In this document: piece after piece, positions 16,160-33,875 of the stretch | Layout of the letters: each line of letters starts with the position of its first letter | Numbering within the stretch: the first letter of the stretch is position 1 | Made by a program: the position numbers and the translations under genes | Assembly: GCA_018062285.1 (NCBI GenBank) | Contig: JAGOSO010000007.1 | Span: 1 to 37,932 of the forward strand | Length of the DNA stretch: 37,932 nucleotides | Direction of reading: 5' to 3' | Origin: Minisyncoccota bacterium | Lineage (GTDB): Bacteria; Patescibacteriota; Minisyncoccia; 2-02-FULL-40-12; GWA2-44-9 | The notes under the pieces: generated by a model | Database searches by the model: none | The model's input: the letters and a program-made list of their open reading frames with translations, nothing else | Told to the model about the DNA's origin: nothing

Positions 16160-18457
16160 ATGGAACAAGTGTTGAGTGTGTTGAAGTTGGTCTTGGGCTA
16201 CTGGTGGGTGATTCTCATCATCGCCATGGCTATCGGCTGGAAAGTCAGCATGTATGCATTCGGCATGTTCATCGTGCCGGATGACTCGATCGCTACGTTG
16301 GTCAAGAAGTTCGTACTCCTCGGCGCCAATCGGCAGTTGCCTCCGGGCAAAGTCGTGGCCACCAACGGCGAAGCGGGTATCCAAGCAATCACGCTTGGCC
16401 CCGGTTTCCATTGGGGCTACTGGCCGTGGCAGTACAAGGTCAACATGACCAAGTTCGTGACTGTCGAGCCGGGATTCATCGGTGTCATCGAGTCAATCGA
16501 TGGTGTGCCGTTGCCGGCTGGTCGTGTAATCGGCGTGCCGGTCGAGTGCGACAACTTCCAGGACGCGGTTGCGTTCTTGAAGAACGGCGGTCAGCGTGGA
16601 ACGCAGATGGCCTCCATCCCTCCGGGGAAATGGCGCATCAACAACCTGGTCTTCAAGGTCAGGTCGATTCCCATGACTACCATCGAGCCGGGCCAAATCG
16701 GCATCGTCGAAGCCATCGACGGTGAACCGTTGCCGGCTGGTCGCATCTTGGCTACTCCGGTTGAGTGCGATTCGTTCCAGGACCCGAAGGCCTTCATGGA
16801 CCGCAAGGGCCAGCGTGGTAACCAGATGGCCGTCGTCCCTCCGGGGCAGTGGCGCATCAACACGCAGATGTTCAAGGTCAATCCGTACGCGATGACCATC
16901 ATCGAGTCCAACCAGATCGGCACCGTCGAAGCTCTCGATGGTGACGCGCTGAGCGAGGGTCGCATCATCGGCCGTCAGGTTGAGTGCGATTCGTTCCAGG
17001 ACCCCAAGGCGTTCATGGATGCTGACGGCCAGCGTGGTCCTCAGATGTCCATCATCCCTCCGGGCAAGTACCGGATCAACCCCAAGATCTTCTCTGTCAC
17101 GTCGGTGGACATCATCGACATCCCGCAGGGGAAAGTCGGTATCGTGACGACGAAGGAAGGTACGCCACTCAAGACCGGTGAAATCGCCGGCCCCGAAGTC
17201 GGCGGACATAACTCGTTCCAGGACCCCAAGGCCTTCATCGAAAACGGGGGCAACAAGGGTCTGCAGGAGCAGGTGCTTCTCGCGGGCCGCTACTTCATCA
17301 ATCCTTACTTCGCCAGCGTGGAAGTGAAGGACATGACCGAAGTTCCGATTGCCAACGTCGGCGTCGTCGTTGCCTTCGTCGGCAAAGAAGGCCAGGACGT
17401 TACGGGAGAAGGTTTCCGTCACGGCAATATGGTGCACAAGGGCGAGCGGGGTGTTTGGATCGATGTTCTCGATCCGGGCATGTACCCGATCAACCCCTTC
17501 ACACACAGTGTCAAGTTGGTCCCGACAGCCAACGTCGTTCTGAACTGGGCGACCGGCAAGAACGAATCACACAAGTTGGACGAGAAGCTCTCGACCATCA
17601 CGGTGCGTTCGTCGGACGGATTCACGTTCAACCTGGACGTGAGCCAGATCATCCACATTCCGCGCACTGACGCTCCCAAGGTCATCGCGCGGTTCGGCAG
17701 CATGCAGGCTCTCGTCACGCAGGTTCTGGAACCGACAATCGGGAACTACTTCCGAAACGCGGCTCAGAACTCTGACGCAATCTCGTTCCTCAAAGAACGA
17801 ACTCAGCGTCAGACTGAAGCGAAGACGGCCATCTCGAAGGCTCTTGCCGAGTACAACGTCGGCGCAATCGAGACACTGATCGGCGATATCAATCCGCCGG
17901 AAGCGTTGATGAAGACGCTCACGGATCGGAAGATCGCTGACCAGGAGAAGGTTACCTATCAGACGCAGATGGAAGCTGAGGGTGTTCGTCAGTCGTTGAA
18001 CCAGGCGAGAGCTCTTGCCGATACGCAGAAGGAAGTTGTCGCTGCGGAACGGAAAGTGTCCATTGCCGATTTCGACAAGCAGACCGCCATCAAGAAGGCG
18101 GAAGGCGAAGGCGAAGCTGCGAAGATCAACGCCAGGGCAAATGCCGAGGCGGCTGTTGCGACCGGCGAGGCTCAGGCCAAGGTCACTACGCTCAACGGCG
18201 CGGCCGAAGCAGGAAAGACTCTTGCTGTCGGTAACGCCGAGGCCGAGGTTATCGAAAAGAAGACCAAGGCCATGGATCGTAGCCAGTACGCTGCGGTCGA
18301 AATCGCTCGGGCCTTGGCTGGCTCAGGCAAGCCTTTGGTGCCCGAGATCATGGTCGCTGGTGGTGCCGCCGAAGGCGGTCGAGGAAGTTCTCTCATGGAC
18401 GTCCTCATTGCCCAGATGGTTGCGACGAAGGTCGCTGCCTCAACCGAGAAGAAGTAA
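16160..18457 (+). CDS. G+C-rich flotillin/SPFH (band-7, YqiK-like) membrane protein with four internal ~73-aa tandem repeats and Ala/Glu-rich flotillin C-terminal region
   Basis: N-terminal TM (VLGYWWVILIIAMAIGW). Four repeats contain 'VECD(S/N)FQDPKAF...GQRG.QM...PPG.WRIN' (about 16478-17380). C-terminal EA-rich coiled region 'AEGEGEAAKINARANAEAAVATGEAQAK' is typical of flotillins. Confidence 0.7.
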   Translation: MEQVLSVLKLVLGYWWVILIIAMAIGWKVSMYAFGMFIVPDDSIATLVKKFVLLGANRQLPPGKVVATNGEAGIQAITLGPGFHWGYWPWQYKVNMTKFVTVEPGFIGVIESIDGVPLPAGRVIGVPVECDNFQDAVAFLKNGGQRGTQMASIPPGKWRINNLVFKVRSIPMTTIEPGQIGIVEAIDGEPLPAGRILATPVECDSFQDPKAFMDRKGQRGNQMAVVPPGQWRINTQMFKVNPYAMTIIESNQIGTVEALDGDALSEGRIIGRQVECDSFQDPKAFMDADGQRGPQMSIIPPGKYRINPKIFSVTSVDIIDIPQGKVGIVTTKEGTPLKTGEIAGPEVGGHNSFQDPKAFIENGGNKGLQEQVLLAGRYFINPYFASVEVKDMTEVPIANVGVVVAFVGKEGQDVTGEGFRHGNMVHKGERGVWIDVLDPGMYPINPFTHSVKLVPTANVVLNWATGKNESHKLDEKLSTITVRSSDGFTFNLDVSQIIHIPRTDAPKVIARFGSMQALVTQVLEPTIGNYFRNAAQNSDAISFLKERTQRQTEAKTAISKALAEYNVGAIETLIGDINPPEALMKTLTDRKIADQEKVTYQTQMEAEGVRQSLNQARALADTQKEVVAAERKVSIADFDKQTAIKKAEGEGEAAKINARANAEAAVATGEAQAKVTTLNGAAEAGKTLAVGNAEAEVIEKKTKAMDRSQYAAVEIARALAGSGKPLVPEIMVAGGAAEGGRGSSLMDVLIAQMVATKVAASTEKK

Positions 18458-18477: not shown

Positions 18478-18516
18478 CCCGTGGGGTGCGCATGCGCGCT
18501 CCACGGGCTTTTTATT
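18478..18516 (+). terminator. Intrinsic terminator cccgtgg-...-ccacggg + CTTTTTATTT
   Basis: Hairpin and T-run immediately after the stop. Confidence 0.65.
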
Positions 18517-18545
18517 TGACAAAATAGGGTTTAATGATTTATAAT
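18516..18545 (+). promoter_or_regulatory. Consensus promoter TTGACA-N18-TATAAT abutting the preceding terminator
   Basis: ttgacaaaatagggtttaatgatttataat. Confidence 0.5.
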
Positions 18546-21663: not shown

Positions 21664-21736
21664 TGCGCTCGATAGGATTCGAACCTATGACCGTCTCCTT
21701 AAAAGGGAGCTGCTCTACCAACTGAGCTACGAGCGC
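21664..21736 (-). tRNA. tRNA-Lys (anticodon UUU)
   Basis: The reverse complement folds as a cloverleaf: acceptor gcgctcg/cgagcgc, D-arm gctc-agttggtag-gagc, anticodon loop cTTTTaa, T-arm atagg-ttcgaat-cctat. No encoded CCA. Confidence 0.8.
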
Positions 21737-25249: not shown

Positions 25250-25278
25250 TCTATATTTAGAGCATATGTTCTTGAAAA

Positions 25279-25294
25279 TAGGCCCATTAGGGCC
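25279..25294. promoter_or_regulatory. Perfect palindrome aggccc-atta-gggcct immediately upstream of the cassette promoter (mraY terminator and/or operator)
   Basis: Read from the sequence. Confidence 0.4.
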
Positions 25295-25295
25295 T

Positions 25296-25325
25296 ATTGA
25301 CTTTTGGGTATAAAATATGGTATAA
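25296..25325 (+). promoter_or_regulatory. Promoter TTGACT-N18-TGgTATAAT (extended -10)
   Basis: ttgacttttgggtataaaatatggtataat. Paralogous to the promoter at 26036. Confidence 0.55.
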
Positions 25326-25401
25326 TTAAGGTACTCTCGTGAGTATAACTTGCGAGTGTTCGTTCACAACATTCAAAGCCTATAAGGCGGAGGATAGACA
25401 T

Positions 25402-25953
25402 ATGAAATGGAATAAGTTCAAGGCGCTTCTTGATTCGAATTACTGGCTTCAGTTTCATATCGGCCCACCCGCGCTTCAGTCGTTGAGGCTCAACGTGCCG
25501 GCGAAGGAGGCTGAGCGTGGACTCAAGGATTACGTTCGGACACGGCTCGATTACATCGCGTTCCGTCCGTTCGAGCAGCTTGACCTTCAGGTTTGTGACA
25601 CGGACGAGAGTGTTGTCGTGCCAAATCCGAAGTACCGCAACATCAAGTTCACGGAAGGAACATCGACTCAGTACGTGATTCGTTTCCATATCGAGGGCGT
25701 GGAATATCCGTTCCATCGTGTTCGATACGTTTATGATCACGGCTCAATCGCTGCTGCCATCAAACATCTCGTGAAGTGGCACGGCGAAACTTCGTGGGGA
25801 GGTCCGAGAGGGCGCGCGTTGAAAATCGACGCCGTCGTTAAGGTTAGCTCTTACTACCACGAAGTTAGCCAGGTCGGGATGCAGCACATCGAGGCCTACG
25901 AGTTCCCCAAAGATTTCGATCTCAAGAAGTTCGAGGGAGAAGTCGCGGCCTAG
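25402..25953 (+). CDS. G+C-rich protein of unknown function (183 aa)
   Basis: The track starts at GTG 25339. ATG 25402 follows GGCGGAGGA. Ends at the terminator module. Confidence 0.5.
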   Translation: MKWNKFKALLDSNYWLQFHIGPPALQSLRLNVPAKEAERGLKDYVRTRLDYIAFRPFEQLDLQVCDTDESVVVPNPKYRNIKFTEGTSTQYVIRFHIEGVEYPFHRVRYVYDHGSIAAAIKHLVKWHGETSWGGPRGRALKIDAVVKVSSYYHEVSQVGMQHIEAYEFPKDFDLKKFEGEVAA

Positions 25954-25956
25954 CAC

Positions 25957-26012
25957 GCCCGTCACACGAAAGGTCCGCCATGCGCGACCCGTGTGGCGGG
26001 CCTTTTAAATTT
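25957..26012 (+). terminator. Terminator module gcccgtcacacg...cgtgtggcgggc + CTTTTAAATTT (copy 1 of a ~70-bp direct repeat)
   Basis: 25951-26020 is about 93% identical to 26624-26693. Confidence 0.65.
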
Positions 26013-26035
26013 AAAAATGTTCAAAAATATCCTAT

Positions 26036-26063
26036 TGACTTTTAAGTAAAAACATAGTATAAT
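26036..26063 (+). promoter_or_regulatory. Promoter TTGACT-N16-TATAAT (paralogue of 25296-25325; shared 'cctattgactttt')
   Basis: Read from the sequence. Confidence 0.5.
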
Positions 26064-26131
26064 TATAAAACAGAGATTAGATAGGTTTTTAAAAATTCAA
26101 CCGCGCCTAAGGGGCGCAGAAAGTAGGAAGT

Positions 26132-26626
26132 ATGGGATTCCCGGTTTGGAAGACTGTCGTTCTCGGTCTGGTTAAGTCCCAGAAGAACTATCGAATGGCC
26201 CTCCGAAAAGCTGGTTACGAAATTAGCGGTTGGGGCGAGAAGGTTCTCAAGAGGACCACGGTCTCTCCGGTGGAACTCGAATTGGATCTCGTCGCCGTGA
26301 CGGTCGAAGAGCTTGGTCTTGAGATTGGCGCGCATCGGGATGTCGCTTGCGCCAAAGCATTGGAGCTTGGTCTCCAGCTTTGCCCAGCGGAAGTTGGTCC
26401 CGCTCTGAGGCTCCTCTACAGGGATCAGCCGCGTGGCGAACTGCTCCGCATAGGTATGCGAGCGGTCGCTTATTCGGCCGGGCGTAAGCTAACGTTCGGT
26501 CTTAACCACAGTGACTTCCGTGGACAAGAACTAAACGGATTTGGTGGCCAAGCACTCGACGGCTATATTGTTGCCGCTCGAGTAGTCTCTCGTATCTGTT
26601 GGGTCTTTGTTCGTCCTCGTAAGTAG
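26132..26626 (+). CDS. G+C-rich protein of unknown function (164 aa)
   Basis: ATG 26132. Leader hairpin gcgcc-taag-gggcgc. Terminator module copy 2 follows. Confidence 0.45.
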   Translation: MGFPVWKTVVLGLVKSQKNYRMALRKAGYEISGWGEKVLKRTTVSPVELELDLVAVTVEELGLEIGAHRDVACAKALELGLQLCPAEVGPALRLLYRDQPRGELLRIGMRAVAYSAGRKLTFGLNHSDFRGQELNGFGGQALDGYIVAARVVSRICWVFVRPRK

Positions 26627-26629
26627 CAC

Positions 26630-26690
26630 GCCCGTCACACGAAAGGCCGCCACGCGCGACCCGTGTGGCGGGCCTTTTAAATTTAAAAAA
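26630..26690 (+). terminator. Terminator module copy 2
   Basis: See 25957-26012. Confidence 0.65.
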
Positions 26691-26699
26691 TAATTCTTC

Positions 26700-26900
26700 A
26701 TTTAATAAAAACAAAAATAGCGAAGCGCTCACTATTTTCGAGCGTTTCTCGACGCCGTATTCTCGTCCGAAAATTTATGGAATTCTTCCGGTAACAAAAA
26801 GGAAACCGAACAGCAGTTCGGCAAGGTGGCCTTTTTGTTCGGAAGTAATGAATAAATTGAAGTTACGAGACAGGCAGAGAGAACAGCGAGAGAAATAGTG
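26700..26900. repeat. Right copy of the ~200-bp inverted repeat (partner 15517-15720)
   Basis: See the left copy. Confidence 0.75.
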
Positions 26901-30759: not shown

Positions 30760-30785
30760 TGCTAGGGAAGTGCTAATATTTACCT

Positions 30786-31364
30786 ATGATTTCTTTTCTC
30801 GAAGGTACAATCGAACATTCTGGCGACAAATATGTCGTTTTGAACACTGGGGGTATAGGGTATAAGGTTATACTATCCCCGAGAGTACTGAATACTATAG
30901 CAAATCGCAAGGATAAAGTAAAGCTCCATATTCACTCTCAAATGAACATGCGCGAGGGTACTTTTGATATGTATGGCTTTGAAAAAAAGAGTGATTTGGA
31001 TCTCTTCCATTTGCTTACAACCGTGTCGGGAATTGGCCCAAAGGGTGCCCAAAATATTTTATCTTCAGTTGAGCCAGCTCATTTGAAGTTAGCGGTGGTA
31101 AACCAAGACGCTGATTATTTAAAAAAAGTTTCTACCTTAAGTTCAAAAGTAATCCAAAGATTGATTTTGGAGTTAAAAGGTAAAGTCGATCACCTTGAAG
31201 GCGAGACTGCTGGTATTGATTTGAGCCAAGATGGTCAAGCCACTGAAGCTCTTCTTGTTTTGGGCTACACTGCTGCTGAAGCCAAAGAAGCTCTCAAAGA
31301 TACTAAGGCTGAAACTCTCAAGGATAGGGTCAGGGAGGCATTGAAGATTTTGGCAAAAAAATAA
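30786..31364 (+). CDS. ruvA: Holliday junction branch-migration complex subunit RuvA
   Basis: N-terminal OB domain, HhH 'VSGIGPKGAQNIL' and C-terminal domain III. Confidence 0.85.
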   Translation: MISFLEGTIEHSGDKYVVLNTGGIGYKVILSPRVLNTIANRKDKVKLHIHSQMNMREGTFDMYGFEKKSDLDLFHLLTTVSGIGPKGAQNILSSVEPAHLKLAVVNQDADYLKKVSTLSSKVIQRLILELKGKVDHLEGETAGIDLSQDGQATEALLVLGYTAAEAKEALKDTKAETLKDRVREALKILAKK

Positions 31365-31375
31365 TATAAAAATAT

Positions 31376-31759
31376 ATGGGAGAACAAAATAATAATTCGG
31401 AGTTCTGGAAGAAGTTGGAGAAAGAGATTGCTGAAGAACAGGAAGCTCGCAAGGAGTATTTGCCAAAACTCGAGCAAGACGTCCAAAAACTAAAGAGTAG
31501 GTATGAAGTATTTTTAGAAGAAAGTCCTGGTGATGCTCTTCGCGCAAAGAGGGATCTGGTGGAAGGAATCGTGGCACTCGAAGAACTCAAAGAAAGAATT
31601 AGGAGATGTGCTGATGACCCTTCAAAAAGACATAATCTTAGCGAACTAGAATTAAAGGAGCTTGAGAGGAGGGTTATGCAAGATCTTGGCTATCCAGAGG
31701 ACGAACTCAAGTTGTTCGATGAATATATCGAATATCTAAAACAAAAAAATCAGCCCTAG
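31376..31759 (+). CDS. Coiled-coil charged protein (127 aa), unknown
   Basis: E/K/R-rich heptad-like sequence. Confidence 0.45.
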   Translation: MGEQNNNSEFWKKLEKEIAEEQEARKEYLPKLEQDVQKLKSRYEVFLEESPGDALRAKRDLVEGIVALEELKERIRRCADDPSKRHNLSELELKELERRVMQDLGYPEDELKLFDEYIEYLKQKNQP

Positions 31760-31811
31760 TTTTTATCGATAAAAGTTCCGACCTTAAGTTAAAAAGTGAT
31801 TCAAGGACTGA

Positions 31812-31875
31812 TTTTGGCCCGCCAAGTAGCGCAATCATGCGTGAACAGCGGGCCTCGTTTTATTATTGACAAAAT
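31812..31875 (+). repeat. Array repeat R1 (64 bp): hairpin ggcccgc-...-gcgggcc + T-run + TTGACAAAAT -35
   Basis: Near-identical copies at 32085-32148 and 32359-32422 (period 273/274 bp). Half-copy at 32917-32943. Confidence 0.8.
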
Positions 31876-31915
31876 ATTTATTTGGTGGTAGTATATTAGA
31901 ACAAGGAGGAGCGAG

Positions 31916-32071
31916 ATGAGAGTGTCGAGGGTTCTAGTTCTGATTGGTGTTGGCGCCGCAGCGGGCGCCATGTTCCACTATTGGGTGTACCCCTCATTCG
32001 TGGATGAGGTAGGGGTGGCAGTGGTGGCCATGCTTGTGGTTCACCTTTATCCTCGTTTGAAGCGTCGGTAG
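31916..32071 (+). CDS. Small hydrophobic peptide A (51 aa) MRVSRVLVLIGVGAAAGAMFHYWVYPSFVDEVGVAVVAMLVVHLYPRLKRR
   Basis: TGgTAGTAT extended -10 and AAGGAGGA RBS 6 nt before the ATG. Under 60 aa, so absent from the track. Paralogous to peptide B. Confidence 0.55.
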   Translation: MRVSRVLVLIGVGAAAGAMFHYWVYPSFVDEVGVAVVAMLVVHLYPRLKRR

Positions 32072-32084
32072 TTGTGTTCCTGTC

Positions 32085-32148
32085 TTTTGGCCCGCTAAGT
32101 AGCGCAATCATGCGTGAACAGCGGGCCTCGTTTTATTATTGACAAAAT
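32085..32148 (+). repeat. Array repeat R2
   Basis: See R1. Confidence 0.8.
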
Positions 32149-32182
32149 ATGGTTTTAATGTTAATGTATAAAAATTGGAGGC

Positions 32183-32350
32183 ATGATGCAGATTCCAGAA
32201 GGGGCGAAGTTACCATGGCTAGTTTTTGTTGGAGTTGCTGTGGGGGTTATTTTTCATAACCTCGTGAACTCTTCAAGGGTTCTTGAGGTTGCGGTGATGG
32301 TTGCGGTGATGGTCCTGTGTCGACGTTACGGTCCGTTGAAACGTGGATGA
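32183..32350 (+). CDS. Small hydrophobic peptide B (55 aa) MMQIPEGAKLPWLVFVGVAVGVIFHNLVNSSRVLEVAVMVAVMVLCRRYGPLKRG
   Basis: TTGGAGG RBS. Shares the G-V-G/A...FH...EV-V-AVM...LKR pattern with peptide A. Confidence 0.55.
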   Translation: MMQIPEGAKLPWLVFVGVAVGVIFHNLVNSSRVLEVAVMVAVMVLCRRYGPLKRG

Positions 32351-32358
32351 CGGTCCCA

Positions 32359-32422
32359 TTTTGGCCCGCTAAGTAGCGCAATCATGCGTGAACAGCGGGC
32401 CTCGTTTTGTTATTGCAAAAAC
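32359..32422 (+). repeat. Array repeat R3 (-35 variant TTGCAA, -10 TATAAT)
   Basis: See R1. Confidence 0.8.
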
Positions 32423-32461
32423 AATTTTCTGTACTATAATGTTGGTGCAAAGGGGTGGATT

Positions 32462-32674
32462 ATGTGGAAGGGAATTAATGCCTGGTTGAATCGTCATGCC
32501 AGGACGGCGAATGCTGTTGCGTTCTTTTTCTCCCTGGCATCTCTCGCCCGGGACGCACAGGCTCACACATTAATGACGATTGATAACAAGCCTTGGACAG
32601 CCATGTCGATCGTTATTGTGATCAGCTGCATTTTGTTCGAGGTCGACAGGGCCTATTTTTCCAAAAGGAGCTAG
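32462..32674 (+). CDS. Small membrane peptide C (70 aa) with hydrophobic core and basic tail
   Basis: ATG 32462 follows AAAGGGG. The track ORF 32384-32674 includes the upstream promoter region. Confidence 0.5.
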   Translation: MWKGINAWLNRHARTANAVAFFFSLASLARDAQAHTLMTIDNKPWTAMSIVIVISCILFEVDRAYFSKRS

Positions 32675-32676
32675 CT

Positions 32677-32886
32677 GTGCCGGTGTACCTTTTGCAGTAT
32701 GCCGTGGAGTTGTCGGGCGATGAGGCCGCTCACGCGTTCGATGAAGCAATTCTTGCAGAGGCCAGGAAGAACAGTGTTATGGTCGAAGAAGTTAGGGTTA
32801 GTCGAGGCGACCATGTCCTTCGTTTTTCTGTGCCCCTTCATTCAGGCTTGAACCTCGCAGATCTTCCCAGAAGTAAAAGAGACTAG
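32677..32886 (+). CDS. Small soluble acidic protein (69 aa, GTG start), translationally coupled to peptide C
   Basis: AAGGAG-N6-GTG at 32665-32679, 3 nt after the peptide C stop. The track lists a longer out-of-context start at 32593. Confidence 0.45.
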   Translation: MPVYLLQYAVELSGDEAAHAFDEAILAEARKNSVMVEEVRVSRGDHVLRFSVPLHSGLNLADLPRSKRD

Positions 32887-32910
32887 GATTTATCAGACAA
32901 CAAAACTTAA

Positions 32911-32943
32911 GGGGCTCGCCACAGCGGGCCTCGTTTTTTTATC
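32911..32943 (+). terminator. Terminal half-repeat/terminator (…cacagcgggcctcGTTTTTTTAT)
   Basis: Matches the 3' half of R1-R3 without a promoter. Confidence 0.55.
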
Positions 32944-32966
32944 TAGAAAGTGGTATTTTGATATAT

Positions 32967-33875
32967 ATGAAGTCGTTTTTGCAGACAAAGGAGTGGTTGA
33001 ATTTCCAAGAGTCAGCTGGACGGAAAGTTTGGCGTTTTGATGATGGAAAAGTAGTAGCTAATATTATCCAGCATGATTTACCGTTTGGAATGAACTATTT
33101 ATATATTCCGCATGGTCCAGAGATTCATTTAGAAAATATTTCCGGTGGTCTTCGTAACGAGTTAGAAAGTTTTATTTCTTATTTAAAAAAAATAGCCAAA
33201 GAAGAGAAATCTATTTTTATAAAAATAGAACCATTGCAGGATAGTGTTATTGAGTTGCTGTATGGTGCTGGTTTTAGAAAATCATCAAAAGAAATTCAGC
33301 CTCATCGGTCGGTGATTATGGATCTAGATAAGTCTGAAGAAGAGATGTTGGCAGCGATGCACCATAAGACACGCTACAACATTAAAGTTGCAGAAAAGAA
33401 TGAATTAAAATTAGTTTTCCGTAAAGACGTAGATACTTTTTGGAATTTGTTAAAACAAACTGCCAAGAGAGATAACTTTTCGACTCATCAAAAAAGTTAT
33501 TACGAAAAACTTTGCTCCACCGAAGGCTTAATGTGTGAGACGGCTTTCATTGAGCATAATGATAAATCAGTAGTGGGTGCCATTTGGTTAGCTTCCGGCG
33601 ACACTGCCTACTATTTGCATGGTGCGATGGATCGCGATCCTGCTTACAGGCCAATGATGGCTCCATACTTAATGCAGTGGGAGTTGATAAAAACAGCTAA
33701 GAAATATGGTATGAAGTATTATGACTTCTGGGGCATTGATGCCAACAGGTACCCCGGCGTCACTAGGTTTAAATTAGGCTGGGGCGGCCGCCAAGTTGAA
33801 TATCCTGGGGCCTTTGATATGTCCATCCGCGGTTTCTGGTTTATGATGTACAAAATTTTAAGAAAAATATTATAA
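32967..33875 (+). CDS. FemAB-family aminoacyl-tRNA-dependent peptidoglycan peptidyltransferase
   Basis: 'MKSFLQTKEWLNFQESAG..' N-terminus and 'WGIDAN...FKLGWGG' C-terminal region typical of FemX/FemAB. The track starts at TTG 32958. Confidence 0.6.
   Translation: MKSFLQTKEWLNFQESAGRKVWRFDDGKVVANIIQHDLPFGMNYLYIPHGPEIHLENISGGLRNELESFISYLKKIAKEEKSIFIKIEPLQDSVIELLYGAGFRKSSKEIQPHRSVIMDLDKSEEEMLAAMHHKTRYNIKVAEKNELKLVFRKDVDTFWNLLKQTAKRDNFSTHQKSYYEKLCSTEGLMCETAFIEHNDKSVVGAIWLASGDTAYYLHGAMDRDPAYRPMMAPYLMQWELIKTAKKYGMKYYDFWGIDANRYPGVTRFKLGWGGRQVEYPGAFDMSIRGFWFMMYKILRKIL

Follow-up and report, generated by a model that had tools for sequence, protein, structure and literature searches.

Organisation of the ruvA-femAB interval

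The interval between ruvA and femAB was analysed in a 37,932-nt contig of a Minisyncoccota bacterium (JAGOSO010000007.1), the whole of which is referred to here as the window. A near-identical block of 64-77 nt is found in this interval in three copies, which start at 31812, 32085 and 32359 (273 and 274 nt from start to start), and each copy is followed by one or two genes for small proteins. The features are as follows:

31765 to 31817, forward strand: ruvA pseudogene fragment (codons ~111-128), which abuts repeat copy 1 and ends in TTTTGG
31812 to 31875, forward strand: repeat copy 1, with hairpin 31816-31854, U-run 31855-31865 and -35 TTGACA 31866-31871
31886 to 32071, forward strand: unit A, with extended -10 TGG TAGTAT 31886-31894, Shine-Dalgarno (SD) sequence AAGGAGG 31903-31909 and gene A 31916-32071
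32085 to 32148, forward strand: repeat copy 2, with hairpin 32089-32127, a U-run and -35 TTGACA 32139-32144 (covariance model R1, 83.9 bits)
32162 to 32350, forward strand: unit B, with candidate -10 TGT TAATGT 32159-32167, SD GGAGG 32177-32181 and gene B ending at 32350
32359 to 32422, forward strand: repeat copy 3, with hairpin 32363-32401, U-run (UUUUGUUAUU) and -35 TTGCAA 32413-32418 (R1, 83.2 bits)
32435 to 32886, forward strand: unit C-D, with -10 TATAAT 32435-32440, gene C 32462-32674 and gene D 32677-32886, which starts at GTG
32911 to 32966, forward strand: short-loop terminator with extended -10; stem 32911-32932, U-run to 32942 and TGG TATTTT 32951-32959

The three direct repeats had been proposed in an earlier, sequence-only reading and proved to be real. 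The 39-nt hairpin core recurs with at most one mismatch at 31816-31854, 32089-32127 and 32363-32401 (0 expected, from 100 shuffles), the 17-mer ACAGCGGGCCTCGTTTT has four exact occurrences against 0.12 expected, and over 77 nt of the block copies 1 and 2 differ at a single base. All repeat copies begin with TTTTGG, a 5′ extension of the conserved block. The same reading had allowed that the repeats could be an assembly artefact, which was discarded, since the breaks in two independent Logan assemblies of this organism (100% identical) fall precisely within copies 1 and 3, as a true repeat predicts; the unit interiors are unique. The anatomy that it assigned to each unit, namely a terminator hairpin, a U-run, a -35, a -10, a ribosome-binding site and a small ORF, was read correctly. 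What it took for a half-copy at 32917 is, by contrast, a complete short-loop terminator (32911-32942) with the same 3′ arm and U-run, in which only the 21-nt inner module is missing, and which is the ortholog of the terminator that relatives carry ahead of femAB or of a 48-aa peptide gene.

At the left border of the array, 47 nt of the ruvA fragment are 85% identical to positions 31124-31170 within ruvA (E = 6e-9), and the fragment is nearest to the ruvA of its own genome (40/47 positions, against at most 35/47 in relatives). A ruvA origin was also considered for the bodies of genes A, B and C and rejected, given that their Smith-Waterman scores were at shuffle level; such an origin is limited to the border fragment. 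At the opposite end, the extended -10 lies 7 nt 5′ of the femAB ATG (32967). The motif CTCGTTTTTTTAT..GGAAAGTGGTATTTTG..ATG is kept in nine relatives, in which the stems differ, and the slot ends in the same terminator-promoter motif in every case. The terminator-promoter at 32911-32966 is the conserved right-hand border of the variable slot.

The array occupies a hypervariable slot because, in close relatives, ruvA either abuts femAB or is separated from it by a gap with unrelated small ORFs. The two genes lie 4-10 nt apart in L029-34, L038, L039, L041, L046 and L048, whereas in L035, L036, L037, L040, L043, L049, L053, L054 and L059 unrelated small ORFs fill a gap of 440-1070 nt. The slot content turns over among close relatives.

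A second island was observed in the same contig, in which one terminator, a 66-nt hairpin unrelated to that of the array, again stands behind unrelated genes. This hairpin follows two ORFs of the window and one of L036, all three unrelated, and starts at the stop codon each time. The GC content of both islands is 0.49, against 0.43 for the contig.

Fold and conservation of the repeat block

In the fold of each repeat copy, an internal loop separates an outer stem of 8 bp from an inner stem of 5 bp, which is capped by a tetraloop, and the U-run comes next; the free energies are -23 to -27 kcal/mol and the z values -2.5 to -3.4, and the R1 score of copy 1 is 82 bits. The -35 (TTGACA or TTGCAA) stands immediately 3′ of the U-run, and the -10-like boxes are found another 16-17 nt on. 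The position of the block 3′ of a co-directional gene, together with a GC-rich outer stem followed by UCGUUUU(A/G)UUAUU, predicts an intrinsic terminator. The copy at 32911 passed the terminator scan, while the other three, with loops of 23 nt, exceeded the loop limit of the scan. The U-runs of these long-loop copies are short (UUUU and then A or G), as opposed to the seven U of the final short-loop terminator, and their termination may therefore be partial. Copy 1 would end the ruvA-ORF127 transcript and give gene A its promoter. The promoter context TTGACAAAATA..GGTTT.AATG is also present 3′ of another terminator, at 18478-18545, so that the -35 part of the block may be held by promoter constraints. 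Among Rfam models, only tRNA-Lys (21664-21736) reached the gathering threshold in the whole window, and between 31700 and 33000 the best matches had E values of at least 1.2, with no family assigned at E up to 10.

The proposal in the sequence-only reading that the repeat itself is functional was borne out by comparison with other lineages, in which hairpin copies are 82-88% identical where RuvA is just 68-72% identical. A search for similar repeats next to small ORFs in other genomes, suggested in that reading, located the hairpin 3′ of an 86-aa ORF with two transmembrane (TM) segments, between uvrB and ruvA, in L054-57 and L062-69; in L054-57 it is placed directly 5′ of the ruvA promoter. 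Between L054 and L055, 2/40 hairpin positions differ, and their 86-aa proteins are 76% identical. AGUA and GAAC are invariant, and the changes lie in the tetraloop and the closing pairs. At the sequence level, the sarcin-ricin or loop E (bulged-G) pattern, A/U-AGUA opposite GAA-C, was found in 5/5 distinct copies, and AGUA-GAA is one of four sequences derived for the sarcin-ricin motif by a graph-grammar model (PMC1865062). The maintenance of this loop sequence across ~30% RuvA divergence, behind unrelated genes, suggests a specific binding partner for the hairpin. Covariation among the five distinct sequences amounted to one compensatory pair, which is not above shuffles.

The distribution of the long-loop hairpin is patchy: it is carried by three lineages only and is missing in the closest relatives (L029-L045), while the distant L054-57 have it. 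In L036, the outer stem and the tail are shared at the orthologous site, and the inner hairpin is missing. The window holds three copies in 38 kb, all within the array, and L062 and L063 have one copy per 20 kb, which led to the rejection, at the local scale, of a REP-like dispersed repeat. A gapped stem-plus-tail pattern returned 24 single matches among 185,579 species genomes, all in unrelated GC-rich taxa and taken as chance terminators; an exact 23-mer of the repeat had no match in JGI metagenomes or viral contigs, nor did a degenerate core pattern in viral contigs.

Since the hairpin is kept across lineages behind a different gene, selection on the hairpin can explain why a conserved repeat lies beside diverged genes. 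Purifying selection on each base of a 64-nt block is nevertheless a strong demand. The tetraloop, which differs between lineages, is identical in 3/3 window copies, and this fits recent gene conversion at least as well as purifying selection on every base.

The encoded proteins

Gene A, annotated at NCBI as the hypothetical protein KBC81_03685, encodes a predicted two-helix membrane peptide of 51 aa with the basic tail RLKRR. Gene B (ORF 32183-32350) may start at ATG 32183 (55 aa) or at ATG 32186 (54 aa). The second start is more likely because the GGAGG box is placed just 1 nt ahead of the first ATG, and the 54-aa form corresponds to representative P0130; the length of 55 aa given in the sequence-only reading is accordingly the less likely one. 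The paralogy of A and B claimed in that reading was upheld. They are 45% identical over 42 residues, with 20 invariant columns, and their identity at the first, second and third codon positions is 69, 62 and 45%. A pS of 0.60 (dS about 1.2) and a pN of 0.35 (dN about 0.46) give a dN/dS of about 0.38-0.4. Genes A and B are true paralogues, namely old duplicates with coding-type substitution under purifying selection.

Both peptides have a GRAVY value of 0.87-0.88, two hydrophobic stretches, a net charge of +4 and basic termini, the tail of B being PLKRG. AlphaFold2 modelled A as helix-break-helix, with helices at residues 2-24 and 26-50 (pLDDT 75). The earlier description of A and B as TM peptides with a basic C-terminus agrees with these predictions, which give two hydrophobic helices in each, and both are predicted to be membrane hairpins of two helices whose basic ends would be cytoplasmic. 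Apart from each other, A and B are orphans: a word-index search of 5.8 billion clusters returned only A itself, and an exhaustive HMMER profile search of 1.84 billion representative proteins returned only A and B. Neither had a match in Pfam, NCBIfam or PADLOC at E up to 0.01-1, the only PHROGs matches were weak (E 0.05-0.15) and to families without a known function, and in exact look-ups A, B (with both starts) and C were not on record. The predicted leaders are at most 15 nt long, with an exposed consensus SD sequence, like those of other genes of this genome. At a best guess, A and B would be small membrane proteins that are abundant and associated with the envelope, rather than toxins.

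The third unit has the same 5′ block as the other two and unrelated cargo. Gene C encodes 70 aa with at least one strong TM segment, and gene D a soluble protein of 69 aa with a net charge of -3. The SD sequence of D (AAAGGAG) lies inside the 3′ end of C, and C is coupled to D, as had been read earlier along with the two lengths; the start of D had been misplaced by one base and is the GTG at 32677, not 32678. An independent Logan assembly calls gene D and a 5′-extended frame that contains gene C. No family match was obtained for C or D. The single-sequence AlphaFold2 model of D is of low confidence (pLDDT 62), D had no match among PDB sequences, and its comparison with the small soluble slot ORFs of L036, L037, L043 and L053 was not significant (E >= 0.25).

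Origin and role of the array

The array is explained, with slightly better than even confidence, as the outcome of an old, local duplication in tandem of a transcription unit for an orphan small membrane protein, with a conserved structured terminator between the copies, in a hypervariable ruvA-femAB slot of a Pacebacteria (CPR) genome. Each unit would be self-contained, with a sigma-70-type promoter whose -35 is fused to the U-run of the previous terminator, followed by a leader of at most 15 nt with a strong SD sequence, a small ORF and the next terminator copy. The first two units would encode paralogous orphan peptides of about 51-55 aa predicted to insert into the membrane as two helices, and the third, behind the same 5′ block, a putative membrane protein of 70 aa, whose gene is coupled to that of a soluble protein of 69 aa. 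The promoters and terminators of the units are probably in use. The hairpin would be a long-loop intrinsic terminator with AGUA/GAA, the canonical sarcin-ricin sequence, in its internal loop, and strong purifying selection on the hairpin itself would account for a spacer that stays near-identical while the genes diverge. It probably does more than terminate, through 3′-end protection or through factor binding by the internal loop, and the identity of the U-run and the -35 part may be partly due to gene conversion.

If duplication and divergence hold, an ordinary gene duplication in a streamlined CPR genome produced the locus, whose value is descriptive: the array would add an orphan family of two-helix membrane peptides, the ruvA-femAB, uvrB-ruvA and mraY-ftsW junctions would be turnover hotspots for small genes in this lineage, and conserved spacers beside diverged genes could stem from selection on a terminator hairpin and not from an antisense regulator. 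To our knowledge, almost no regulatory RNAs, small proteins or toxin-antitoxin systems have been characterised in CPR bacteria, and nothing useful was found in the literature on CPR small-protein hotspots or promoter architecture.

Simple duplication and divergence does not easily fit the unrelated cargo of the third unit and the second island. Together, this cargo and the placement of one terminator behind unrelated genes in that island hint at a cassette-like exchange. An unlikely explanation is that the long-loop hairpin and the 66-nt hairpin form an undescribed class of conserved, portable 3′ modules that mark the fixed borders of variable slots in Paceibacteria, with a dedicated factor recognising the sarcin-ricin-type loop. 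Such modules could anchor an integrase-less, cassette-like swapping of small genes or provide a shared post-transcriptional control of fast-evolving small membrane proteins. For CPR, proof of a protein-bound 3′ module, of a cassette border or of a type I locus would in each case be unprecedented.

It is quite unlikely that the array is a cassette array, in which the hairpin would serve as a recombination or capture site, either attC-like or as a homology anchor for uptake, placing unrelated small genes in fixed slots. The hairpin does stand behind four different sequences (the ruvA fragment after ORF127, A, B and the 86-aa ORF of L054-57) and ahead of four different genes (A, B, C and ruvA). 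Its patchy distribution, the turnover of slot content between close relatives, the 66-nt hairpin that starts at the stop codon of three unrelated ORFs and the raised GC of both islands are also in line with cassettes, as is the junction of the ruvA fragment at a GG microhomology, which would record a past illegitimate recombination exactly at the hairpin base. As in integron cassette arrays and CALINs, such as those with Vibrio VCRs, there are structured repeats (about 60-120 nt) with a higher mutual similarity than the ORFs between them, and these repeats alternate with unrelated, mostly orphan small ORFs at a fixed chromosomal place. However, a scan of 30 ORFs of the 38-kb contig detected no integrase, recombinase, transposase or reverse transcriptase, and by inspection the repeat ends have no attC-type core sites (RYYYAAC/GTTRRRY, the R″/R′ sites of integrons). 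A separate promoter serves each unit, in contrast to typical cassettes; the repeat, with only three or four copies, is a terminator with a U-run; and two of the ORFs are paralogous, which duplication explains directly. In addition, the single copy per 20 kb in L062 and L063 does not describe a dispersed repeat, and the outer stem and tail without the inner hairpin at the orthologous site of L036 fit vertical descent with decay. An integron proper and a diversity-generating retroelement were rejected, the contig being without integrase or reverse transcriptase.

The sequence-only reading had favoured a type I toxin-antitoxin locus resembling Ldr or Ibs. According to this proposal, A, B and perhaps C would damage membranes, an antisense RNA over the block or the mRNA ends would repress their translation, and the repeat would encode or pair with that RNA; this was not sustained and is now considered decidedly unlikely. 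In characterised type I toxin mRNAs, a strong promoter is not known to be combined with a consensus SD sequence on a leader of at most 15 nt, and most type I toxins have one helix. Here, strong promoters and consensus SD sequences on such short leaders are the norm of the genome, and A and B have two helices.

The locus nonetheless agrees with the criteria used by Fozo et al. 2010 in searching for type I loci, namely tandem short ORFs, a TM segment and a charged C-terminus (PMC2887945), although these are screening heuristics and not proof. A and B are hydrophobic peptides under the 60-70 aa limit, with predicted TM segments and polar or charged C-termini. The tandem loci ldr-rdl, ibs-sib and zorO-orzO of E. 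coli likewise have several short-ORF copies in one intergenic region, with ORFs of <70 aa that are hydrophobic and end in a polar or charged C-terminus, a similarity that reaches past the coding region, and an absence from close relatives, where the intergenic region is much shorter (PMC2887945). It was also observed that the minimum free energy fold of the predicted A mRNA pairs the SD sequence with the 3′ UTR just ahead of the terminator, lowering the mean unpaired probability of the SD-AUG region to 0.22, against 0.39 for the whole mRNA, in a manner that resembles, by analogy, the 5′-3′ locking of hok-type mRNAs. This sequestration is not repeated in B or C (0.35 against whole-mRNA values of 0.32-0.34).

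A single antisense promoter-like site, in unit 2 and running from 32164 to 32135 (10/12), would direct transcription into hairpin copy 2. However, the equivalent place in units 1 and 3 lacks such a site, and promoter-like sites in the region occur at chance frequency (8 found against 8.2 expected from shuffles). No terminator-like site is predicted on the minus strand between 31800 and 32950, and thus no antisense or trans-acting small RNA with its own promoter and terminator was found by prediction. The G.U pairs of the hairpin (G17.U30 in the window copies and U11.G35 in L054) mean that the fold is conserved on the sense strand only, and its location behind the 86-aa protein and directly ahead of the ruvA promoter in L054-57 is the context of a sense-strand terminator, not of an antitoxin. 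In contrast to the E. coli loci, the non-coding part is far better conserved than the ORFs, the SD sequences are open on very short leaders, and the peptides have no sequence relation to toxins: no known family (Hok, Ldr/Fst, Ibs, TisB, ShoB, TxpA/BsrG, Zor etc.) was matched in Pfam, NCBIfam, PADLOC, PHROGs or the 1.84 billion representatives, and no known defence family was matched at the locus.

A conditional terminator is very unlikely. In this scheme, a protein or RNA that recognises AGUA/GAA would set the read-through from unit to unit and, at the end of the array, into femAB and the Mur ligase gene. Sarcin-ricin modules are typical docking sites for protein or RNA, and variation is seen in the tetraloop and closing pairs but not in the internal loop. 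The weak U-runs of the three long-loop copies, compared with the last terminator, and the position of the element directly ahead of ruvA in L054-57 also agree with such a cis-regulatory RNA. On the other hand, the predicted mRNA folds show no evident alternative pairing for an antiterminator, no Rfam family was recovered, and covariation is not demonstrable with so few sequences; because the downstream genes each have their own promoter, read-through control is not needed. Leader-peptide attenuation, with a Val-rich ORF followed by a terminator, was rejected in view of the promoter of each unit and the folds, which offer no antiterminator alternative.

The least probable reading is decaying debris, in which the small ORFs would be non-functional and the array a remnant of local terminator-promoter duplications with no selected role: the orphan state of A and B, the ruvA pseudogene fragment at the array border and the dispensability of slot contents in relatives would agree with it, but the third codon positions are the most diverged and dN/dS is about 0.38, the frames are intact with well-placed SD sites in all units, A and B share a two-helix architecture despite a dS of about 1.2, and the hairpin is kept across lineages.

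Comparable known elements are intrinsic (Rho-independent) terminators and REP/BIME-type extragenic palindromes, which likewise have a GC-rich stem followed by a U-run at gene 3′ ends, are repeated between genes that are convergent or co-directional and could share with the array hairpin a role in mRNA 3′-end protection. Unlike REPs, the hairpin is not dispersed. In ordinary terminators, such as the femAB-proximal ones of the relatives, the structure is kept and the loop sequence is not, whereas the 21-nt AGUA/GAA loop module is conserved in sequence across distant lineages.

A 48-aa peptide, smp (MKKRLLMGAFVGLGIIIGAQWPEFF...RAKD), is encoded in L037, L040, L049 and L059 and represented by P0122-P0129. 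Its gene is found in the same place, behind the conserved terminator and before femAB, and the peptide is of the same size as A and B. The architecture is also alike, with a basic N-terminus, a G-x-G-x-x-x-G helix, a short aromatic loop, a second helix and a basic C-terminus, and by eye the shared G.G...G motif makes homology convincing. Homology was rejected, given that an HMM built from 11 smp sequences scored 1.2 bits for A and -0.8 for B, values reached by 392/2000 and 1581/2000 shuffles, respectively. The smp gene has no SD sequence and seems to lack a leader and to share a transcript with femAB, while A and B are monocistronic and have SD sequences.

Layout of the array and its small genes

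The tandem array of repeats and small genes was confirmed in the contig, whose 37,932 bp make up the entire window and which belongs to a MAG labelled Candidatus Pacebacteria bacterium at NCBI. In order, uvrB (minus strand), ruvA and an unannotated 127-aa ORF (ORF127) lie before the array, and a femAB-family transferase gene, HIT and Mur ligase lie after it. The array is somewhat likely to be an old tandem duplication: one orphan transcription unit for a small membrane protein would have been duplicated long ago inside a hypervariable intergenic slot, giving units that are set apart by a structured, conserved terminator-promoter element present in several copies. This interpretation retains the anatomy and the functional repeat of the sequence-only reading and abandons its type I toxin identity. 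The array comprised the following features:

31816, 32089 and 32363: 39-nt hairpin core of copies 1-3, at most one mismatch (0 in 100 shuffles)
31916-32071: ORF A, SD site upstream (hypothetical protein KBC81_03685 in the NCBI annotation)
32183 or 32186 to 32350: ORF B, SD site upstream
32462-32674: ORF C, SD site upstream
32677-32886: ORF D, GTG start, SD site upstream
32911-32942: short-loop terminator

The conserved block extends from TTTTGG through the hairpin and a U-run into the -35 box, at a spacing of 273/274 nt. In the predicted fold of each copy, a 5x4-nt internal loop separates the 8-bp outer stem from a 5-bp inner stem that ends in a tetraloop, and UCGUUUU(A/G)UUAUU comes after the hairpin. 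A -35-like TTGACA or TTGCAA is found directly 3′ of the U-run, and -10-like boxes lie 16-17 nt past it; the box of unit 1 is of the extended TGn type, and that of unit 3 reads TATAAT. Coordinates, folds and shuffles agree with the layout first noted, in which three copies of hairpin, U-run and -35 are followed by SD sites and ORFs, except that the supposed half-copy is instead a complete short-loop terminator, which has the 3′ arm and U-run in common with the repeat copies and lacks only the 21-nt inner module. Two Logan assemblies (same organism, other runs) end inside copies 1 and 3, which is how a real repeat behaves in short-read assembly and argues against an artefact.

The proposed paralogy of A and B was upheld by an ungapped alignment of 42 residues with 45% identity. 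Their aligned codons presented 59% DNA identity (69, 62 and 45% at codon positions 1, 2 and 3), with pS of 0.60 (dS about 1.2) and pN of 0.35 (dN about 0.46), indicating old duplicates evolving as coding sequence. TM prediction, the check proposed for these peptides, gave two hydrophobic segments in each, with net charge +4 and basic ends, and an AlphaFold2 model from a two-sequence alignment placed a helix at 2-24, a break at Pro26 and a helix at 26-50 (mean pLDDT 75). At least one strong TM segment was predicted for C; D is a mildly acidic, soluble protein. In Pfam, NCBIfam, PADLOC and PHROGs, no model's curated cut-off was reached by A-D or by ORF127; A, B and ORF127 gave weak PHROGs matches (E 0.05 or higher), mostly of unknown function. 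Among 5.8 billion protein clusters, a word-index search returned A itself only, and an exhaustive HMMER search with an A/B profile against 1.84 billion representatives returned A and B only; the A/B family is an orphan pair.

Variable slots and their borders

The surroundings of 40-odd loci, chosen via relatives of RuvA, of which many are close, were compared (L029-L070 denote such loci). It was observed that ruvA and femAB are conserved neighbours, separated by 4-10 nt in many genomes; in others, the gap spans 440-1070 nt and is occupied by small ORFs with no relation to A-D and mostly none to each other. Whatever its contents, the right end of this slot is constant (variable stem, CTCGTTTTTTTAT..GGAAAGTGGTATTTTG, 5-7 nt, ATG), and this motif combines a terminator with an extended -10 that comes after it, very near the ATG. 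The gene past it, femAB or smp (a 48-aa femAB-linked peptide gene of relatives), would be nearly leaderless. The short-loop terminator at 32911 is this slot-end element, and across 38 nt it is 97% identical to L036. An extended -10 (GTGGTATTTT or GTGCTAATAT) was also seen for femAB and ruvA (window 32951-32969 and 30770-30788), as in the relatives' smp; in the three genes it ends 5-7 nt ahead of the ATG, without an SD, and their mRNAs may be leaderless, in contrast to A-D with their strong SD sites.

ORF127 (31376-31759, between ruvA and the array) encodes a charged, probably coiled-coil protein that was found in none of the relatives examined; its best NCBIfam match had an E of 8.4e-4 (19 bits vs a 140-bit cut-off), and identical copies occur in two Logan assemblies. 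Copy 1 adjoins, through a GG microhomology, a 47-nt ruvA fragment that comes from this genome's own gene, which it matches at 40/47 positions (at most 35/47 for relatives' ruvA). ORF127 and the ruvA fragment behind it suggest a separate insertion or duplication event. The 24 nt ahead of copy 3, at the 3′ end of gene B, match the fragment at 14/24 (manual count).

Other insertions were seen in relatives. In L059 (~690-870), smp is split right past its start codon by a MITE-like insert of ~150 nt whose ends are 18-nt inverted repeats (CCCGCACATAACAAGCAC ... GTGCTTGTTATGTGCGGG). L035 (6060-6455) harbors a GIY-YIG endonuclease ORF (88 aa) inserted at the femAB 5′ end, with a duplicated truncated femAB start, and a similar duplicated start lies beside a conserved hairpin (AATCGAGGATCCTCGATT) at L059 ~1350-1480.

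A third variable slot, which behaves like the ruvA-femAB slot, is the divergent junction between uvrB and ruvA. It is empty in the window (30760-30785, 26 nt), L029, L053 and L070, and in L035, L036, L045 and L054-57 it is filled by a promoter, a gene for a small membrane protein and a terminator. This slot and the island between mraY and ftsW are located as follows:

L035 4656-5000: uvrB-ruvA slot
L036 4757-5000: uvrB-ruvA slot
L054 2750-3155: uvrB-ruvA slot
L055 3113-3500: uvrB-ruvA slot
Window 25250-26897: second island, between mraY and ftsW (adjacent in L035)
Window 25952-26017 and 26625-26689: island hairpins, 12-bp outer stem plus inner stem, -29 to -33 kcal/mol, z -4 to -5

In several relatives the uvrB-ruvA slot promoter begins precisely at the uvrB start codon (CAT directly followed by TTGACTTTT), and the membrane-protein genes (50-86 aa) have no mutual relation. 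In L062 (6146-9721), uvrB encodes 1191 aa, with Pfam matches to intein-splicing, LAGLIDADG and HTH domains as well as to those of UvrB.

The island's two orphan ORFs, of 204 aa and 164 aa, are unrelated, and each has a 66-nt hairpin terminator starting at the stop codon; the two hairpins are 94% identical, and the same hairpin is found in L036 (151-216), behind a third unrelated ORF. On their right-hand side, variable slots thus have a fixed border made by conserved terminators. This pattern could simply mark sites that tolerate insertions, or it could stem from cassette-like exchange with the hairpins as anchors, to which both unit 3 (a 5′ block common with units 1 and 2, unrelated cargo) and the near-identical island hairpins behind unrelated ORFs lend weight, although the 30 ORFs scanned in the contig include no recombinase gene.

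Upstream of ftsW, a non-coding stretch of ~185 nt (window 26715-26897) presents 72-77% nucleotide identity in relatives (L036 240-427; L059 433-618, reverse; L064 5152-5195, reverse), and in L059 it lies inverted within the ruvA-femAB slot. Two terminator-like hairpins (26822-26805 and 26740-26712) were seen on its minus strand. It had no Rfam match and is probably an unannotated ncRNA gene.

Conservation of the hairpin

The hairpin is the single feature deserving wider attention. BLASTN of the slot against relatives revealed the long-loop hairpin in L054-57 at 82-88% identity, and R1, its covariance model, scored these at 75-80 bits and found further copies in L062-69. In both groups it stands behind an 86-aa two-TM ORF between uvrB and ruvA, directly 5′ of the ruvA promoter, in genomes whose RuvA is only 68-72% identical to that of the window. 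The proposal that the repeat itself is functional gains support from its retention across these lineages behind a different gene.

Between L054 and L055, the hairpin differs at 2/40 positions and the 86-aa proteins are 76% identical. Variation falls in the tetraloop (AUCA, UUCG, UUCU), the outer-stem closing pair (U-A, C-G, U.G, one C.A mismatch) and the first inner-stem pair (G.U or A-U). No variation was seen among the copies compared in the internal loop (N-AGUA opposite GAA-C), and AGUA/GAA is the canonical sarcin-ricin sequence (PMC1865062). The hairpin matched no Rfam family, and its five distinct sequences are too few for covariation to inform. At the orthologous L036 site, the outer stem and tail are as in L054 but the loop has 6 nt, indicating an old element of this group whose inner module can be lost.

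Copies 1 and 2 differ by 1 base over the 77-nt block; since synonymous sites nearby are near saturation, an unconstrained block would be expected to differ at many positions. Cross-lineage data show strong purifying selection on most hairpin positions, which would explain most of the spacer identity. An unrelated terminator at 18478-18545 is also followed by the -35 context (TTGACAAAATA..GGTTT.AATG), and the conservation of the -35 part can therefore come from promoter constraints. The tetraloop is the same in 3/3 window copies, yet variable between lineages, suggesting that gene conversion adds to copy identity alongside selection, two causes not separable here.

A type I toxin locus, as first proposed, is improbable: the array agrees with the type I screening criteria of Fozo et al. 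2010 and the predicted fold of the A mRNA pairs the SD with the 3′ UTR, but this pairing does not recur in the predicted folds of B or C-D; the antisense-promoter check within the units gave one promoter-like site, in unit 2 only, with regional sites no commoner than in shuffles; the minus strand has no terminator within the array; the conserved fold is sense-specific, its G.U pairs being valid on that strand only; and the same hairpin elsewhere is a plain terminator ahead of ruvA. No antitoxin RNA was predicted, and this defining component of type I loci finds no support.

The hairpin at 18478-18545 is a strong terminator (13 bp, -26.5 kcal/mol) joined to a 12/12 consensus promoter (TTGACA-18-TATAAT), whose -35 context has 80% identity over 45 nt to that of array unit 2; this genome uses terminator-promoter fusion as a general design. 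Three tandem 219-nt coding repeats, 62-70% identical, were also found at 16538-17194, inside an SPFH/Band-7 protein gene (16160-18457, 765 aa).
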